Below the pieces are notes generated by a model that saw only the letters and a list, made by a program, of their open reading frames with translations, ran no database searches and had not been told where the DNA came from. From the NCBI GenBank assembly GCA_019058445.1, contig JAHPZA010000006.1:512001-576000 (forward strand): a DNA stretch of 64,000 nucleotides, in the 5' to 3' direction. Shown in pieces: positions 48,763 to 55,905 of the stretch. Source of the stretch: Promethearchaeota archaeon (GTDB lineage: Archaea; Asgardarchaeota; Lokiarchaeia; Sigyniarchaeales; SOKP01). Position 1 is the stretch's first letter. Each line of letters opens with the position of its first letter. The translations under genes and the position numbers were made by a program.

Positions 48763-49974
48763 ATGAATGCTCAAGATATACAAACCTACAGATATCGTTG
48801 GATTGTTTTATTTTTGTTCTTTTTCGCAAATGTAGTTTCCAATATGCTTTGGACTACTTATAATCCTATTATTTCCCTTGCAATGGAATTCTATGGCGTA
48901 GATGAATTTTACATAATTTTAATAACACTTATGTTTTTGATCGTATATATTCCTATAACTTTTCTAGCATCATGGCTAGTAGATAGGTATGATTTCAAAA
49001 TAGGAGCAGGGATTGGAGCATTATTCATGGGTGTGTTTGGCTTTCTACGATATATAGCAGATAACAATTATATACTTGCCTTAATATTTAGTATTGGAAT
49101 AGCAATTGCCCAACCCTTCTTATTGAATACTATAACTAAATTATCGGCAAACTGGTTTCCTGATAAAGAACGTACAACTGCAACGGGGATTTCTTTAATA
49201 GCAACTGCAATAGGTGTTGCGTTAGGTATGGTTGTAACCCCAATATTAGTTGTAATGATTAATTTTAGAAGCATGCTGCTTATTTATGGAGTCTTGGCAC
49301 TGGTTTCAGGCATGCTCTTCATTCTCTTCGCTAAAAATAAACCACCTACACCACCTTCGAAAAATTTAACTAATGATAGAGTTTTTGTATTTGAGGGTTT
49401 AAAAATGCTAATTTCAAACCGAAATTTTATGATTTTAGTACTAATCTTTTTTCTAGCAATGGGGATTTTTAATATGATTACCACCTATATAGAGTTGATT
49501 GTCATCCCTCGGGGTTATGACTCGATATTTGCTGGAATTCTAGGAATGTTATTAATACTGGGCGGGATAGTAGGAACAATTATAATGGCGGTTGTATCTG
49601 ATACGTTAAATAAAAGAAAGGTAATTATGATAATCTCTTTATTTATCGCAACAATTTCACTTTTAGTTTTTTCATTTACCTCTGATGGAATCTTACTCTT
49701 ATTATCAGGGTTTTTTTTTGGATTTGGTTTAATGGGCGCGGCTCCATTAGCATTGGAATATGCCGTAGATGCGACTAAACCAGTTCCGGAAGCAAGCTCA
49801 AATGGGATATTAATGATGGTTGGGTCACTAGGCGGAATTTTTTTAATTATTAGCTTAGAAAATGTCAAGATGTCTGGTGATTATTTCCCTGCATTAATTA
49901 TTCAAACAGTTTTACTCGCAGTTTGCTTAATATTCGCTTTTTTTATAGAGGAATTTAAAATCAGAGAAGATTAG
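48763..49974 (+). CDS. MFS transporter
   Basis: 12 TM; YRYRWIVL; KLSANWFPDKERTTATG. Confidence 0.88.
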   Translation: MNAQDIQTYRYRWIVLFLFFFANVVSNMLWTTYNPIISLAMEFYGVDEFYIILITLMFLIVYIPITFLASWLVDRYDFKIGAGIGALFMGVFGFLRYIADNNYILALIFSIGIAIAQPFLLNTITKLSANWFPDKERTTATGISLIATAIGVALGMVVTPILVVMINFRSMLLIYGVLALVSGMLFILFAKNKPPTPPSKNLTNDRVFVFEGLKMLISNRNFMILVLIFFLAMGIFNMITTYIELIVIPRGYDSIFAGILGMLLILGGIVGTIIMAVVSDTLNKRKVIMIISLFIATISLLVFSFTSDGILLLLSGFFFGFGLMGAAPLALEYAVDATKPVPEASSNGILMMVGSLGGIFLIISLENVKMSGDYFPALIIQTVLLAVCLIFAFFIEEFKIRED

Positions 49975-50099
49975 AGCAATGTGTCCATAACTTTTCTTTA
50001 AAAGATTTTGAACCTCTCAAATCTATTATCGGTCATAAAAGTTTAATTTAATTATATTCCTATCTTAATTAATTAAATAAATGGAGAAAATCAAAAGAA

Positions 50100-51311
50100 A
50101 TGAAAGCTGTAGAAATATCTGCTGAATGGTCTCCAAAACCGAGTTTTAAACTCGGTTCTAAAGATATTGATGGCAAACTGACTTATTTAGGTTCCCAAGT
50201 ATGGAAAAATCCAGTAGTAACGGTTATTGACGATAAACCGATTCCAAAAATCAAGCCAAATGAAGTTCTATTACAAGTGAAAAGATGCGGAATATGTGGT
50301 TCTGATGTTCATATGGCTCAATCATATGATGATGGATATATCTATTATCCGGGATTAACTGCGTTTCCTGCAACCCTCGGTCATGAGTTTGCTGGTGAAG
50401 TAGTAGAAGTTGGCAGCCAAGCAATAAATAAGAGGACTGGCAAATTATATGAGAAAGGTGAACCTGTAACTGTGGAAGAAATGGTGTGGTGCGGTGAATG
50501 TAAGCCATGTTGTGACGGATTCCCAAACCATTGTGAAAGATTGCAAGAAATAGGATTCTCAATTGATGGAGCTTTTGCTGAATATATTGCTGTCCCTTCT
50601 AAATTATGTTGGAGTTTAAAAAAATTGGAAGGAAAGTATGAAGATATATATAAAATAGGCAGTTTAGTCGAACCAACTTCGGTAGCTTATAATGCTGTTA
50701 TAGAAAGAGGGGGAGGGATTAGACCGGGTGAGAATGTTGTTATTTTAGGAGCTGGTCCAGTCGGTTTGGCTTCTGCTCGTATTTTGAAAACTGCAGGAGC
50801 TGCACTTTGTATTGTTTCTGAGCCTAACGAGCATCGAGCAAAATTTGCTAAAACAATGGGTGCTGATTATACAATTAATCCTCAAAAAGAAAACTTTGTA
50901 GAGAAAGTAAAGGAGTATACCGATAACGATGGAGCTGCTTTATATCTTGAGGCAACAGGACTTCCTCAAGTAGTTACAGAGGATATTCAAAACTGTATTT
51001 GGGAATGTAAATCCGTCAATAGTACTGTTGTTATTGTGGCAAGGGCAGAGCAGAGAATGCCTGTTTGCGGTGAATATTTTCAAGTAAGAAGAGCCCGAAT
51101 TGTTGGTGCACAAGCTTAAATAGATCTCCTATTTAAAATGTATGGCCACAGCGGGCACGGAACCTTTCCAAATGTAATTAGTTGTATGGCTGCTGGAATG
51201 GACATGACACCATTGGTTACAAAAGAGATCTCATTAGATGATGTACCAGAAAATTTAAAATTACTTCAAACGGATAGGGAAAATTGCAAAATTTCTGCCA
51301 AAATTAACTAG
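50100..51311 (+). CDS. iolM: scyllo-Inosose 3-dehydrogenase (Zn-dependent MDR) interrupted by a 30-nt insert; 393 aa if the insert is removed
   Basis: CGICGSD, GHE, CGECKPC...C, GAGPVG. After IVGAQ the frame resumes 30 nt later with GHSGHGTFPNVISCMAAGMDMTPLVTKEISLDDVPENLKLLQTDRENCKISAKIN*. Inositol gene context. Confidence 0.85.
51115..51144 (+). other. Putative BHB-type mRNA micro-intron (30 nt; equivalent register 51114-51143)
   Basis: In-frame insert carrying TAA, with an 8-bp hairpin TTAAATAG/CTATTTAA and relaxed bulge-helix-bulge junctions. Same size as the three tRNA introns. Confidence 0.65.
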
Positions 51312-51316
51312 ATTTT

Positions 51317-53485
51317 TTAAAAATCATCTATTTTTTTTTGATTTTCTTTTTCATATTTATGGATTTTATTAAATTCTACTTTTAGTTGAGCATGGTTTTC
51401 TAAAAATTTCTTTAACTCTTTTTTATGATTTACTTTACAATAGTTAGAAAGCTTAATTTTCAAATCTTTTAATTCCCTTAAATTGGATGTAATATTGTTT
51501 TTCGTGACAACAATATTATTTATTACTATGTTATGGAAGATTTTTCTTTCTTCTTCGTTAAAATCCATTATTTCAGCAAATAAGTCATGTCGGATTATTA
51601 TAACCCTTTTAGAATACAAATTTCTTTCTTTTTCCGAAATTTTAGCATTCTTAGGAAAATCTATAACTTTTAAAGGCATATCTGAAATACCAATAATAAA
51701 AAGTAAAGTATAAGGTGTATAATATTTTCTAGCTTTATCTAAGATATTTTCTTCATTCAAATTACTAGTAAAATCGAATAAGATAATTTTATATTTAAAC
51801 AAATCTAATTTCAATTTAACAAGATTATCTCTAATTTTTTGAGTGAAATCTTTATTGACTATTAATAATCCATCAATTCGGTAGTTATAATTAAGAAATA
51901 TTACAATTTCAGAATAATATAGACTTCCCAGTTTCCTGGTCATTAAAAAATTGATACATTTATGAGAAAGAATACCTATATTTCTATATTTAGCAAAATA
52001 TGTATCGTTAAAACGGATGTCATATAAGGTAGGATTGAGGATTTTTTTCGCAATATCAGTTATAGGTCGTCTACTTACCCCATATGCCTTAGCAATTTTA
52101 GTTAGAGATCTTCCATTTTCAAAATCTCTAATCTCATTAACTATTTCGGAAATATCATTTATTAAATCTATTTTTATACCAATATTATCACTTATCACTT
52201 CTATAGAGATTCCAAGCTCCAAATCATTAATGATTTTATCCCTAAGGTCTATATTAGATAATGTGTTATAAAAACCCAAGAAATTAGCAATTTTTTGAAT
52301 TTTTTTTCGTGGTATATTATATTTTCTGGCAATATCCACGGGTACCCATTTATCTATTAACATCCTATATAATATACAATTTATAATTTCATTGTTCCTG
52401 TTGATTGAAACTACTTTTTTTATGGTTTCATCATAGTCAATGTCTTGATTTTTTGTCCAAGTCTTAAAATCACTTATAATCTTAAAACTATGAATAGGGC
52501 GAATTAAATACTTATCAGATTTAATGCTTAAACTGTACTCTTTTAATAAAAATTGTAATTTAGGATTATTAAAATTCTGAAAGCTAATTTCTGTTATTTT
52601 ATCATCTAATATATCCTTAGCAATCTTCATTATCTTTTCTTTAGTAATTATATCTCGTCCTCTCTTAAGGAGCTTTATATATTTCGAGACGGTTGATTTT
52701 GAAATGCCTGCTCTTTTTGCTATTTGTCTGGCACTTTCTTCTGTTTGAATGATTCTATGTACAACAAATTTTACAATCTCAGAATTTCTATTAATTATTT
52801 CACATTTTTTTAGAATCTCATCTTTATTCAATTTAGACGAATAACCATCTAAAATATTTATTAATTTAGATTCATCAATATTTTTTATCCATAGTGCAAA
52901 CTCTCTTGTAATTCTAACCACATTATATGGAGAGTTAGTTCCTGATATATTTCGATAATATTTTAGTAATCTCTGAAATTGGGGATGAGTAAAATTTTTA
53001 AATTCTATTCTTTCAATGTTTTCTGCTACTTTAATTATATAATTGTCGGAGAAAGTATGTTTAAATCGATTATCAAATTTATTCTTAATTACAATTTTAG
53101 CTATTTGATTTAAAGTTGAATCAGTCATATGAAATTTTTCCTTCAATTCTGTTAATGAAACTCCAAAAACGAAATCAATAATATCTAAAACTAGAAGGAA
53201 ATGATCTTCAATTGTTTTAAAATTAACGTTGCGCCTATCAGTTTGTATTCTCGAACATTTATATTTATTGACAAAATCATGAAATTTATTATCAATTTCC
53301 AAGAAAATTTTTTCATATGTTGGATTTTTGAATAATTTCTTATTTCTTCTTATCTTAATGATATCATTTAAAATATGAACGAATTTATAGGTTTCTCTAA
53401 TATTCAACTCTTTTTTTAAATTTATAATAAAATGATTTAATTCCAATATTAGTTTTTTCCGTTCAAATGATATTCTTTTTACCAT
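51317..53485 (-). CDS. Multi-HTH protein with putative C-terminal PD-(D/E)xK-like nuclease domain
   Basis: Two ~120-aa internal repeats ending in HTHs (SARQIAKRAGISKSTVSKY; PVDIARKYNIPRKKIQKI), further HTHs (SLTKIAKAYGVSRRPI), then GILSHKCI...SE...RIDG...FDFTS...K..KY. Very AT-rich. Confidence 0.6.
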   Translation of the reverse strand: MVKRISFERKKLILELNHFIINLKKELNIRETYKFVHILNDIIKIRRNKKLFKNPTYEKIFLEIDNKFHDFVNKYKCSRIQTDRRNVNFKTIEDHFLLVLDIIDFVFGVSLTELKEKFHMTDSTLNQIAKIVIKNKFDNRFKHTFSDNYIIKVAENIERIEFKNFTHPQFQRLLKYYRNISGTNSPYNVVRITREFALWIKNIDESKLINILDGYSSKLNKDEILKKCEIINRNSEIVKFVVHRIIQTEESARQIAKRAGISKSTVSKYIKLLKRGRDIITKEKIMKIAKDILDDKITEISFQNFNNPKLQFLLKEYSLSIKSDKYLIRPIHSFKIISDFKTWTKNQDIDYDETIKKVVSINRNNEIINCILYRMLIDKWVPVDIARKYNIPRKKIQKIANFLGFYNTLSNIDLRDKIINDLELGISIEVISDNIGIKIDLINDISEIVNEIRDFENGRSLTKIAKAYGVSRRPITDIAKKILNPTLYDIRFNDTYFAKYRNIGILSHKCINFLMTRKLGSLYYSEIVIFLNYNYRIDGLLIVNKDFTQKIRDNLVKLKLDLFKYKIILFDFTSNLNEENILDKARKYYTPYTLLFIIGISDMPLKVIDFPKNAKISEKERNLYSKRVIIIRHDLFAEIMDFNEEERKIFHNIVINNIVVTKNNITSNLRELKDLKIKLSNYCKVNHKKELKKFLENHAQLKVEFNKIHKYEKENQKKIDDF

Positions 53486-53641
53486 ATTTTTTTATTTTTA
53501 AATAATCAAGAGTATAATTTAATGGTCTAAAAATCATCTAACGTTTTTAATACTAACAGTAACATAATTTATTTATTTTTAAAAGAAAACCAGATATGAA
53601 TTGAATATTAAATTTTGTTTTAATTAGACTAATCAATGAAG

Positions 53642-53684
53642 GGACATATTGGTCATGGAACGCTTCTTATGTGATTTCTTGTAT
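53642..53684 (+). pseudogene. Degenerate copy of the iolM segment GHSGHGTFPNVISCM
   Basis: GGA CAT ATT GGT CAT GGA ACG CTT CTT AT- GTG ATT TCT TGT AT; begins at the codon where the 30-nt insert sits. Confidence 0.75.
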
Positions 53685-53694
53685 ATTTACTTCA

Positions 53695-54477
53695 TTAATG
53701 ATAATAGTCTATAAATTCTCCTTCGATTTTCTTAAAAGGAATTAGCTTAAATAATTCTTCGAAAAGATAATTATAGGTTTCTAAATCAAAAATTTTAAAC
53801 TCAAATGAGTATTTCTGAAAATCTCCTTCATCTAAATTGTTAAAATAATCAAAATATAATCCAATTTTATAATAATCTGTATAAGTGTGATCGACAGTTA
53901 TTGTTTTAATGTTAAATATATTGACAAAAATATATTTTTCAGTTAAATTAAAATTTTTTTTTGAATACTTAGATTTCAATTCTAAATAATTCTTAAGTTT
54001 CTTTTTCGGATAATTTTGAATCCATCTTTTATTAGTTAATATTTTATCTCTTCTAGTATCTGTTAATTTTTTATTTAAACCATATGTTCTGAATAAAATC
54101 CTTTCATCTCTTTCTAAATGATCGAATATTTCTGTTCTTGCTAAGATCATATTAATGCACTTAAGAACTGCAGGTATTATTTTTTTTTTAAAGGATTTTT
54201 TTGGCACAGCATAACCTTGCTCCCTTCTTCCTTTATAAAATATGTTTAATACACCATTTTCGACTTTAAATATAATCTTAAATAAAAAGTTCTTTGTAAT
54301 TAATTTTAATGTTGTCGATAAATGTTCACGAGGGCCATATTCTTTTATATTATAGCGAGATCTTTTAGTACCATAAATATTTGCTGTAATATTTCTCACA
54401 AATTCATCAAAAACTTCATTGATATCCTTCAGATATTTGTCTAGTCTAACAATTAGTTCTGGCTCTTCTTCCATCAT
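53695..54477 (-). CDS. Hypothetical protein (cargo between two iolM fragments)
   Basis: 260-aa K/F/I-rich ORF; no family recognised. Confidence 0.6.
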   Translation of the reverse strand: MMEEEPELIVRLDKYLKDINEVFDEFVRNITANIYGTKRSRYNIKEYGPREHLSTTLKLITKNFLFKIIFKVENGVLNIFYKGRREQGYAVPKKSFKKKIIPAVLKCINMILARTEIFDHLERDERILFRTYGLNKKLTDTRRDKILTNKRWIQNYPKKKLKNYLELKSKYSKKNFNLTEKYIFVNIFNIKTITVDHTYTDYYKIGLYFDYFNNLDEGDFQKYSFEFKIFDLETYNYLFEELFKLIPFKKIEGEFIDYYH

Positions 54478-54560
54478 CTTTCGTACAAATTTTTATAAAA
54501 AATGAATTGAATTCAAACTATTTGTTTAAAGTTAAAAAGAAATTAGAATTTATAAATGCG

Positions 54561-54686
54561 ATGGCAGCGGGTATGGATATGACACCCATGGTTACCAAAG
54601 AAATTAGTTTAGATCAAGTTCCTGAAAATCTCAAGCTTTTACAAACAGATCGAGAAAATTGTAAAATTTCTGCGAAAATAGCATAA
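54561..54686 (+). pseudogene. Displaced second copy of the last 41 codons of iolM
   Basis: MAAGMDMTPMVTKEISLDQVPENLKLLQTDRENCKISAKIA*: 38/41 aa but only 93/126 nt identical to 51186-51311. Confidence 0.92.
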
Positions 54687-54727
54687 AATTTTGTTTAATT
54701 TCTAAATCTCTCTTTTTTTAATTACTC

Positions 54728-55795
54728 TTAAAACCTATAATCTGGTAAAGGTTCTTCAAAAACCCAGTGAAGTTCTTTAGGTAAATCATGATAATCCACT
54801 TGTTTTATGATATCCGTAAAATCTCGGCTGTTAAAGGTATTCCAAAATATTATCGTCTTATTTTTAATGTTTGGTTTGTTTTTATGGACGAAACCTAATA
54901 GCGCTGCAAATGTTTTCCCCGAATAAGTGGGCTCAAGAATAATATCTTCACCATTTTTTAAGATTTTAATAGCTTCAATACATTCTGGTGTTGGAATCCC
55001 ATAATCAATTCCATAATATTCCTCATTATAATGTAAATGCTCAAAAGTAATATCGGATATGGTATTACCAAAACTGTTTATATATTTTATAGTTCTATTG
55101 GATAACCGCCGTATTGCCCTGAAATTACAATCTCTCGAATAGGACACTTGTATAGCATGAATATTGGTCTTTAGTCCAGCAAGTTTTATTCCTAGCGTTA
55201 AACCTGCTGCCGTTCCAGCCGAAGCAGTCGGAACAAAAATATAATCTGGCTCAGGTATTTCTCCATTATCAACTTGATTTTTTAATTCAAACGCGGCATC
55301 TATATATCCTAAAGTCCCTAATGGATTACTGCACCCTACTACCATGTAGTAAAAATCATCAGTTTTAGGAATAGCATTGATTGGATAATAAAACTCGGTT
55401 TTATAATACAAATCTAATAATAAATTATCCCTCACGAAAGTAGAAACTGGTTGATCCATCATAACTGCTACAGGTTTCAATTTTAATTGATCGCAAAATA
55501 TTGCGTTTGCAACACATTGATTTGATCCAATGGTTCCTGCTGTGAGTATTTTTTTATAGTTCTGATTTAGAGCATCTGCATAAATAAATTCCATCTTTCG
55601 AGATTTATTACCTCCATACAGTGGAGAAGTAATATCGTCACATTTTACCCAAAGTGAGTTAATACCCAACTTGTCTTCTAATTTAGTTAATTTTTTGACT
55701 GGTGTCTGTGTAGGTACTAACTTCATCCATGGGATCTTTCCTTCAAGGTCGGGATATTTTTCAAATAATAGCGGTTTGCTTCGAGTTTCAGACAT
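54728..55795 (-). CDS. PLP-dependent D-cysteine desulfhydrase/ACC deaminase family protein
   Basis: YGGNKSRKMEF, GSNQC, SAGTAAGL, LEPTYSGK. Confidence 0.9.
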   Translation of the reverse strand: MSETRSKPLLFEKYPDLEGKIPWMKLVPTQTPVKKLTKLEDKLGINSLWVKCDDITSPLYGGNKSRKMEFIYADALNQNYKKILTAGTIGSNQCVANAIFCDQLKLKPVAVMMDQPVSTFVRDNLLLDLYYKTEFYYPINAIPKTDDFYYMVVGCSNPLGTLGYIDAAFELKNQVDNGEIPEPDYIFVPTASAGTAAGLTLGIKLAGLKTNIHAIQVSYSRDCNFRAIRRLSNRTIKYINSFGNTISDITFEHLHYNEEYYGIDYGIPTPECIEAIKILKNGEDIILEPTYSGKTFAALLGFVHKNKPNIKNKTIIFWNTFNSRDFTDIIKQVDYHDLPKELHWVFEEPLPDYRF

Positions 55796-55905
55796 TTTTC
55801 TAATCCAAATTTGTTATCGATCATATTAAAATTATGATTTTACATAAAATTTGGGATTACAAAAAAATTTCTAAAAAAATATCCAGCTTTTCCCGTTAAT
55901 CAAAC

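Follow-up and report, generated by a model that had tools for sequence, protein, structure and literature searches.

The iolM locus of a Promethearchaeota archaeon of the class Lokiarchaeia (assembly GCA_019058445.1) raises the question why a single gene should possess two different 3' ends, one directly behind a short insert with an in-frame stop codon and the other farther downstream, beyond a long reading frame on the opposite strand. The locus lies in a stretch of 64,000 nucleotides (contig JAHPZA010000006.1, positions 512,001 to 576,000 of the forward strand), which we call the window and to whose numbering all coordinates refer unless a contig or locus code precedes them. The genome of the window is designated G000, and the other G and L codes denote the compared genomes and loci. 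On balance we regard it as probable that iolM was entered by a cassette composed of a bulge-helix-bulge (BHB) intron, a replacement exon 2 and a free-standing nuclease gene, which would spread into intron-less alleles by break repair while the intron protects the cassette's own site.

The iolM open reading frame (ORF) at 50100-51119 ends with ...IVGAQ, a single A and a TAA codon. The glutamine codon CAA (Q338) occupies 51111-51113 and is followed by 30 nt (51114-51143) that include the in-frame TAA, after which the codons GGC CAC AGC GGG CAC GGA (GHSGHG) resume a frame that continues to a TAG at 51309-51311. The gene was named with the NCBIfam model NF041097 (IolM, scyllo-inosose 3-dehydrogenase, a zinc-dependent dehydrogenase). 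Exon 1 (50100-51113, plus strand), delimited from the ORF list, the sequence and this profile, comprises 338 codons ending in ...RARIVGAQ and matches profile positions 1-335 of 389 with 427.7 bits, and the part behind the insert, which we call replacement exon 2 and assign to the cassette lineage (51144-51311, plus strand, 55 codons and the TAG), corresponds to positions 336-386. As positions 335 and 336 abut, no residue is missing or extra at the exon joint. The uninterrupted orthologue of the nearest relative scored 493.7 bits over positions 1-386, the curated cut-off being 450. The second 3' end, which we call the displaced native exon 2, is present in two pieces on the plus strand. A degenerate, frameshifted 5' piece (53642-53686, GHIGHGTLL..VISC) starts exactly at the exon 2 boundary, and the 3' piece (54561-54686, repeat D1) consists of 41 codons and a TAA. 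The latter shares 74% nucleotide identity with 51186-51311, differs from it in 3 of 41 residues, and shows a ratio of nonsynonymous to synonymous divergence (dN/dS) of 0.02-0.11 against other native copies. On the minus strand lie a 722-aa ORF (51317-53485), convergent to iolM and ending 5 bp beyond the iolM TAG, and a 260-aa ORF (53695-54477) placed between codons 15 and 16 of the displaced exon. This layout had been described in a preceding model-made reading of the letters and ORFs (the sequence-only reading), and all of its elements and coordinates, from the iolM frame running to GAQ to the copy at 54561-54686, hold in the sequence.

We compared iolM in 17 related genomes. In 12 of them the gene reads ...RIVGAQGHSGHG... 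uninterrupted, continuous from GAQGHSGHG to MAAG, as had been predicted for empty alleles. The insert was found at the identical codon boundary in four genomes (G000, G003, G005 and G021) and in six metagenomic loci, giving 10 loci in total. One of these inserts (L032) measures 29 nt, so the insert length is not constrained to multiples of three, and this insert would shift the frame if it were retained. Removal of the insert yields GAQ|GHSGHG, identical to the 12 uninterrupted alleles. The iolM architecture of G000 as such recurs in nine further loci, all from other assemblies. We considered an assembly chimera as a trivial source of the duplicated gene end and rejected it, as an independently built Logan contig of 34.6 kb, which probably derives from the same sample, spans 49800-55200 with 0 differences, and the same architecture exists in the nine other assemblies. 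A joint removing either the intron or the cassette was not present among the contigs aligned to 49800-55200, a result that is uninformative either way given the patchy coverage beyond the one long contig.

What kind of insert is this? The textbook BHB motif is a 4-bp helix between two 3-nt bulges (PMC4090602). In G000 the predicted fold and the alignment delimit a helix-bulge-helix-bulge-helix (hBHBh') RNA region at 51093-51156 on the plus strand. Its central 4-bp helix pairs GCAC of exon 1 (51108-51111) with GUGU at the 3' end of the intron (51138-51141; AUGU in G000), and it is flanked by the two 3-nt bulges AAG (51112-51114) and AUG (51142-51144). The mini-intron (51114-51143, plus strand) is thereby composed of the last nucleotide of the 5' bulge, an inner hairpin of 8 bp (51116-51123 with 51129-51136) closed by a 5-nt loop, the intron strand of the central helix and the first 2 nt of the 3' bulge. 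The outer helices join exon to exon and consist of GCCCG/CGGGC, UUGU/ACAG and GGU/GCC, the last being GGY/GNC across the copies. Cleavage of BHB substrates usually takes place after the second nucleotide of each bulge. A cut at these two positions excises exactly 51114-51143 and joins CAA to GGC. We calculated pairing statistics from an alignment of the 10 distinct intron-region sequences: 94.6% of the cells are standard pairs, as compared to 33-47% after the partners were slid by 1-3 columns. The outer exon-exon helices (12 pairs) are 95% paired and the inner hairpin (8 pairs) 92%, three hairpin pairs show compensatory changes (e.g. U-A to C-G), and in the central helix three of the four pairs are invariant in 10/10 sequences, the fourth being C-G in 9/10 and C-A in G000. 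The same genome encodes an EndA domain (PF01974, 68 bits; EndA at C9:770595) and RtcB (PF01139, 574 bits). These features point to a near-canonical BHB intron of the type cut by the archaeal tRNA-splicing endonuclease, which would be spliced from the iolM transcript. This is a more precise description than the 'micro-intron' of the sequence-only reading.

The same region would also be compatible with a truly split iolM, in which the TAA terminates a 339-aa protein, a conserved AUG/GUG starts a separate 57-aa piece, the two products assemble, and the hairpin serves, for example, as a recognition or junction element at the DNA level. An A/GUG start lies 6 nt before exon 2 in 10/10 copies, the 57-aa ORFs were annotated by gene callers, and the local fold is no more stable than that of shuffled sequence (z = -0.97). 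However, the GUG is at the same time one strand of the 4-bp central helix, with GCAC in exon 1 as its partner, and the bulge-helix-bulge geometry together with the flanking exon-exon helices is kept in all copies, although compensatory changes are confined to the hairpin. The predicted cuts yield a seamless IolM without loss of a residue, both EndA and RtcB are encoded, and assembly from two pieces is implausible for a second iolM insert in G021 and L029, which splits CGICGSD|VHM. We therefore consider a split gene distinctly improbable; the issue is in part independent of the question of mobility.

The second insert just mentioned deserves a brief description of its own. It is 30 nt long, lies in iolM of G021 (L027:1421-1450, minus strand; another genus) and in the same place in L029, and interrupts a zinc-site motif. 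With a UCGG/CCGA central helix and an 8-bp hairpin it has the same mini-intron build; it shows no link to the cassette and is absent from the window. We also considered whether the displaced exon 2 is preceded by a second BHB motif, which would turn the cassette into one large intron or provide alternative 3' exons. This possibility was rejected, as no shared GUGUAU-like element was found upstream of the displaced copies and the copy has been lost in some lineages.

How firmly is the convergent gene tied to this intron? A search of a database of 5.8 billion proteins returned six relatives of the 722-aa protein (52-61% identity) and nothing else. All seven members of the family lie convergent to an iolM gene which this intron interrupts and a 57-aa exon 2 ORF completes, while the gene is absent from the 12 genomes with empty iolM alleles. 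A displaced copy of exon 2 is present in 7 of the 9 loci carrying the 722-aa gene or its tail, and the copies are at different stages of decay. They comprise 54 intact codons in L030/L031, 54 codons in L033, 48 codons in L032, 15 degenerate and 41 intact codons separated by the 260-aa ORF in G000, 15 codons in L029 and 8 codons in L034, and none was seen in L035. The association of 722-aa homologues with inserts and duplicated 3' ends, on which the sequence-only reading had made its proposal depend, is thus borne out by every orthologue for the intron and by 7 of 9 loci for the exon. The first codon of exon 2 is also the very first codon of the displaced copy in G000 and L033, and nothing resembling the end of exon 1 was found upstream of it; the point of DNA insertion is therefore the intron position. 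The downstream neighbours are a PALP enzyme and an acetolactate-synthase-like gene in G000, but AP_endonuc_2 and creatininase genes in L029/L033, which indicates that the cassette tracks iolM rather than any larger block of synteny. The G005 allele combines the intron with only one exon 2, and nothing else of the cassette is recognisable there.

The 722-aa gene encodes three helix-turn-helix (HTH) modules and a predicted C-terminal restriction-endonuclease-like domain (aa ~495-660). Its Pfam matches are HTH motifs only, matches in PADLOC and PHROGs are likewise confined to the HTH part, and a self-comparison revealed three related modules, each of which ends in an HTH. For the C-terminal 240 residues we found 88 distant relatives, many of them located behind HTH arrays. 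An AlphaFold model of this domain, based on an alignment of 53 of the 88 relatives, reached a pLDDT (predicted local distance difference test) of 90 and a pTM (predicted template modelling score) of 0.87 and displays an alpha-beta-beta-beta-alpha-beta core. Strand 2 carries the conserved D538 and strand 3 the conserved D571-x-T573; K584/K587 belong to the helix that comes next, and H508 and E526 are located earlier in the chain. Foldseek gave no significant match; its best rows are restriction enzymes, and the structural neighbours are almost all PD-(D/E)xK nucleases. In a predicted-structure atlas Mrr, Rpn and Eco47II clusters were recovered at TM (template modelling) scores of 0.40-0.49. VIA-align wide, which is independent of Foldseek, was dominated by helical bundles matching the long helices of the domain and was uninformative, and the model of the full-length protein was poor (pLDDT 61), its fold search returning noise only. 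From the domain model we consider a restriction-endonuclease-like fold likely, in line with the nuclease proposed earlier, and an active nuclease plausible. The last seven residues follow the pattern Qxx[IL]D[DE][FY] in all full-length orthologues (QKKIDDF at 51320-51343 in the window). This C-terminus resembles a PCNA-interacting box, which suggests that the protein may act on DNA ends or at forks in concert with the sliding clamp. The sole paralogue of the C-terminal domain in G000 is a 609-aa protein with a different N-terminal region (C9:348011-348676; L048:7000-8829, minus strand).

The prominence of HTH motifs invites a more conservative explanation, which we consider unlikely: the 722-aa protein could be a multi-HTH transcription factor or other DNA-binding protein of the inositol locus, carried on a passive cassette. 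Exon 2 would then have been duplicated by one old illegitimate recombination, the arrangement would have spread by ordinary gene transfer and homologous recombination, and the intron would be unlinked to the protein, being one of many BHB mini-introns of this lineage. HTH motifs are indeed the only sequence-family matches, the nuclease fold was deduced from weak matches and has threonine at the position of the catalytic lysine, and mini-introns of the same build occur without such a gene, as shown by the intron-only allele of G005 and the second intron of G021. However, a family that occupies a single site, is found nowhere else in the searched proteins and is missing from all 12 empty-allele genomes is not easily explained as a regulator, nor is an insertion point that is nucleotide-identical across lineages with different downstream neighbours. 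There is no reason for a regulator to lie between two copies of a gene end, and the PCNA-box-like C-terminus would suit a DNA-processing enzyme. The phylogenetic evidence bears on the same choice.

In a tree of exon 1, built without its last 90 nt, the occupied G000 allele is sister to the empty G002 allele (support 100/99) and the occupied L033 allele is sister to the empty G022 allele (100/100); the supported branches force at least three changes of occupancy state. Exon 2 of G002 agrees with the displaced copy of G000 in 40/40 residues and 86% of nucleotides, as compared to 77% of nucleotides for the replacement copy of G000, so that the empty allele is closer to 54561-54686, as had been expected if this copy is native. 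The displaced copy of L033 groups with exon 2 of G022 (95/86), with 81% nucleotide identity versus 67% for the replacement copy, and the DNA downstream of these two also aligns. The replacement copies of G000, G003 and L030 form a supported clade of their own. The tree of the last 41 codons is too short to place the displaced copy of G000 with support; only the clade of new copies and the pairing of the old L033 copy with G022 are supported. Between G000 and G003 the synonymous divergence (dS) amounts to 0.28 for replacement exon 2 (100% amino acid and 95% nucleotide identity), 0.27 for the 260-aa ORF and 0.61 for the displaced copy together with the end of the next gene, as compared to 1.7-1.9 for exon 1 and 1.1-1.7 for neighbouring genes. 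The divergence of the cassette is thus 4-6 times below that of the host genes. The 260-aa ORF, found only in these two genomes and without a family in Pfam, PADLOC or PHROGs, is intact in both and has a dN/dS of 0.45, so it is probably a real, fast-evolving gene travelling with the cassette.

The sliding identity between G000 and G003 climbs from 64-87% to 90-97% at about 51057, approximately 60 nt upstream of the intron, and the identity to G002 drops at the same place, which marks 51057-51113 (plus strand) as the approximate extent of a high-identity tract at the end of exon 1 that resembles co-conversion. Between L033 and G022 the identity likewise decreases as the 3' end of exon 1 is approached. 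Such gradients are what conversion tracts would leave. Most differences among the displaced copies, and between these and native genes, are synonymous (dN/dS 0.02-0.14, P = 6e-4 to 1e-8 against neutrality), so each copy must have belonged to a functional gene of its own lineage until not long ago. Separate recent invasions, or a refreshment of the right arm at each transfer, would fit this pattern better than one ancient insertion. Taken together, the sister pairs of occupied and empty alleles, the displaced copies that belong to the host lineage and the low dS of the cassette indicate from sequence comparison that the cassette moves horizontally. Empty alleles in G002 and G022 could in principle also result from precise excision, but this would need two exact deletions, and there are no repeats at the end points. 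That occupied and empty alleles are sisters twice also speaks against a regulator on a passive cassette, although the similar divergence of cassette and host between G000 and L030 is what such a cassette would lead one to expect.

An integrative element would be another mobile solution. Direct repeats of a gene's 3' end around foreign genes are the classic signature of site-specific recombination, here at an attachment site in the 3' part of iolM and with a replacement end brought in by the element, as is the case for elements targeting tRNA genes or the 3' ends of other genes, and an uncharacterised 722-aa protein could be a new recombinase. Nevertheless we consider this highly improbable. 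Scans against Pfam, PADLOC and PHROGs found no integrase, transposase or recombinase family, in agreement with the sequence-only reading, which had recognised no integrase or transposase. The repeat copies are 74% identical with no identical shared core and only short exact stretches; the intron site marks the exact start of the displaced copy, which no exon 1 sequence precedes; the length of the element is a mere 2.2-3.4 kb, and further element genes are absent; and the identity gradient in exon 1 resembles a conversion tract and not a fixed crossover point.

Several loci appear to document the fate of the cassette after its arrival. In G003 the intron and the replacement exon are retained and followed by the terminal 34 nt of the 722-aa ORF, after which the sequence resumes at 53684, i.e. 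51346-53683 is missing and with it the degenerate piece at 53642-53686. We prefer to read G003 as a deletion derivative of a cassette with the 722-aa gene. An insertion into G000, namely a re-insertion of the 722-aa gene through a tail relic, would account for the same difference, but G003 holds the 34-nt ORF tail without the matching 5' fragment of the displaced exon, and deletion is preferred for this reason. On the reverse strand after native exon 2 we found KQKKIDDF* in L030 (behind the displaced copy) and QKKMDDF in G002 (an empty allele), which correspond to the conserved C-terminus of the 722-aa family. Weaker relics of this tail are present in G003 and in the window at 55868-55900 (plus strand), the latter being a faint remainder of the spacer located behind native exon 2 in relatives, where this spacer includes the 722-like tail (homologous to L026:2395-2463 of G002). 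An exact 13-nt direct repeat, TAAAAATCATCTA, at 51318-51330 and 53528-53540 has its sole copies in the window at these two positions and brackets the 722-aa ORF. The second copy of TAAAAATCATCTA lies 43 nt upstream of the ORF start and reads KTLDDF* on the reverse strand; 53515-53548 (given on the plus strand, repeat D4) is a possible remnant of an earlier 722-like gene tail, for which the evidence is weak. We interpret the tail relics as leftovers of earlier copies of the 722-aa gene, which would imply a course of invasion, decay and re-invasion. The hints of repeated loss and regain again suggest something other than a regulator spread passively.

Some further observations concern the DNA behind iolM. 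In L017 (G011), an uninterrupted allele from a different genus, TTTAAAATCATCTTTAG is located about 50 nt past the iolM stop and reads ..KDDFK* on the reverse strand; it may be another 722-like tail relic. The PALP gene (D-cysteine desulfhydrase-like) is found on different sides of the short spacer following native exon 2 in G000 and in G002/L030 and is missing in G003 (window 54728-55905 compared with L026, L030 and L024). Of the acetolactate-synthase-like gene only the last ~10 codons (..ELLPPN.Y*) are left in G002 and L030. The region downstream of iolM is a rearrangement hot spot.

From the architecture and its recurrence, the conserved BHB, the conflict between the phylogenies of host and cassette and the predicted nuclease-like fold, we infer splicing, cleavage, immunity and a repair pathway as follows. 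The cassette, consisting of a 29-30-nt BHB intron, its own exon 2 and the convergent gene for the multi-HTH, restriction-endonuclease-like protein, would have entered exactly at the boundary of exon 1 and exon 2. The pre-mRNA would fold as hBHBh', the tRNA-splicing endonuclease would cut both bulges, and RtcB would join CAA to GGC, so that full-length IolM is made with the exon 2 of the cassette. In naive alleles the 722-aa protein would recognise and cut the uninterrupted, conserved DNA junction GAQ|GHSGHG, to which the occupied allele would be immune as the intron splits the recognition site. Repair of the break from an occupied allele would copy the intron, the replacement exon and the nuclease gene, with exon 1 as left and the displaced exon 2 as right homology arm. 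Later on the nuclease gene and the displaced copy would degenerate, as may be seen in G003, L029, L034 and L035 and in the tail relic of G002, and alleles could be invaded again. The earlier suggestion that the displaced end is intact because it serves as a homology arm is compatible with these data; in L029, L034 and L035 most or all of the copy has been lost.

Several points weigh against this model. The central helix of G000 has the C-A mismatch (AUGU), by which an AUG happens to arise; in every copy the 5' bulge is directly followed by a C-A or C-U mismatch, so that this side is slightly relaxed; and the conserved A/GUG would also allow separate translation of the 57-aa piece. In the C-terminal domain the canonical lysine of (D/E)xK is replaced by threonine, and sequence profiles of the domain identified no family or solved relative in the Pfam and PDB databases. 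No duplicated gene ends were found around five loci of distant homologues (L049-L051, L053 and L054) or around the G000 paralogue, so that the signs of a homing-like lifestyle are limited to the 722-aa orthologous group. The divergences of cassette and host are similar between G000 and L030, so that vertical inheritance may explain part of where the cassette occurs. No dedicated nuclease would be required if the cassette were carried by horizontal transfer and ordinary homologous recombination. Finally, the putative nuclease is encoded on the strand opposite to iolM, and an illegitimate join has to be assumed for the first duplication. We nevertheless favor break repair with the help of the putative nuclease at the strength given at the outset.

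The closest precedents for the exchanged gene end are the 'gene hybrids' made by mobile ORFs in fungal mitochondria, known from atp6 of Allomyces macrogynus, atp6, atp9, cox2 and nad3 of Glomus sp., atp9 of Rhizopus and cox2 of Mortierella (PMC3630166). In these hybrids a conserved gene receives an endonuclease gene along with a C-terminal part of foreign origin, and its own C-terminal part ends up downstream; the native copy is most similar to that of the nearest relative, from which it differs largely at synonymous positions, whereas the inserted copy has diverged much further in DNA and stayed similar in protein (PMC3630166). The iolM locus with its putative nuclease gene shows the same pattern. 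The fungal hybrids differ by their location in organelle genomes and by their enzymes, which are of the LAGLIDADG or GIY-YIG kind; the inserted genes mostly share the strand of the host gene, are often in frame with it and have no intron at the joint (PMC3630166). The iolM cassette resides in an archaeal chromosome, its putative enzyme belongs to a multi-HTH/restriction-endonuclease-like family and is encoded on the opposite strand, and a BHB intron is located at the joint. A parallel for the division of labor is collaborative homing, described for the free-standing F-CphI gene beside an ORF-less group I intron in psbA of cyanophage S-PM2 (Zeng, Bonocora, Shub 2009; summarised in PMC6083498). 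In that system an ORF-less intron in a gene interrupts the target of a neighbouring free-standing endonuclease gene (PMC6083498); the layout at iolM is alike, with the putative nuclease gene directly downstream. The intron provides immunity and the nuclease mobility (PMC6083498), and we propose the same roles for the parts of the iolM cassette. The phage system differs by its self-splicing group I intron, its Endo VII-type enzyme, for which cleavage has been demonstrated, and the lack of a duplicated exon (PMC6083498). The iolM cassette has by prediction a protein-spliced (BHB) intron, is located in a cellular genome, encodes a different fold and combines a replacement exon with a displaced native one. 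It would thus join two known designs, the replacement-end gene hybrids of fungi and collaborative homing.

With regard to the intron, the literature found documents protein-coding archaeal genes with BHB introns for crenarchaeal cbf5 alone, where the pre-mRNA contains a short BHB intron that is removed by the tRNA-splicing machinery and whose presence varies among relatives (PMC2738675). The iolM insert resembles it as a short predicted BHB intron of variable presence in an archaeal protein gene, but the cbf5 introns have neither a linked nuclease gene nor an exon duplication, and the host of iolM is an Asgard archaeon and not a crenarchaeon. With regard to the enzyme, PD-(D/E)xK homing endonucleases such as I-Ssp6803I form one of six homing endonuclease families (PMC6083498), and the predicted core of the 722-aa protein is likewise restriction-endonuclease-like. 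The 722-aa protein is far larger than I-Ssp6803I, has no detectable sequence relationship to it, carries three HTH modules and threonine in place of the motif lysine, and is encoded by a free-standing gene instead of within an intron. Its arrangement also departs from a further archaeal type. Archaeal rRNA and tRNA BHB introns encoding LAGLIDADG enzymes (I-DmoI, I-PorI and relatives) spread via the endonuclease, which cuts intron-less alleles. In that type a stable-RNA gene has a long intron which itself contains the gene of the enzyme, whereas in iolM the intron of a protein gene measures 30 nt and the putative enzyme is encoded outside of it, beyond the replacement exon.

A 2026 preprint on tRNA introns of Asgard archaea states that the route of intron arrival remains open. 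We tentatively propose, at somewhat less than even chances, a generalisation of what the iolM locus suggests: BHB mini-introns in Asgard protein genes may be acquired and disseminated as DNA through collaborative homing with a free-standing, hitherto unrecognised family of multi-HTH, PCNA-linked, restriction-endonuclease-like enzymes that carries a replacement exon, in cycles of invasion, decay and re-invasion of which intron-only alleles such as that of G005 would be the residue. The iolM locus offers a natural replicate series for such a proposal, as occupied, empty, intron-only and decayed alleles are available from related genomes. It provides a BHB intron of a protein gene that is tied physically and phylogenetically to a putative nuclease gene and a replacement exon, so that two proteins and short substrates would suffice for a direct test of whether introns move in Asgard archaea. 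The uncharacterised nuclease-like domain family with its 88 distant members and long modular HTH arrays is of possible interest as a source of programmable or long-site DNA binders. The design of an endonuclease combined with a replacement gene end would be extended from fungal mitochondria and phages to archaeal chromosomes and, if true, the proposed homing would show concretely how introns can be gained in those prokaryotes that are most closely related to eukaryotes.

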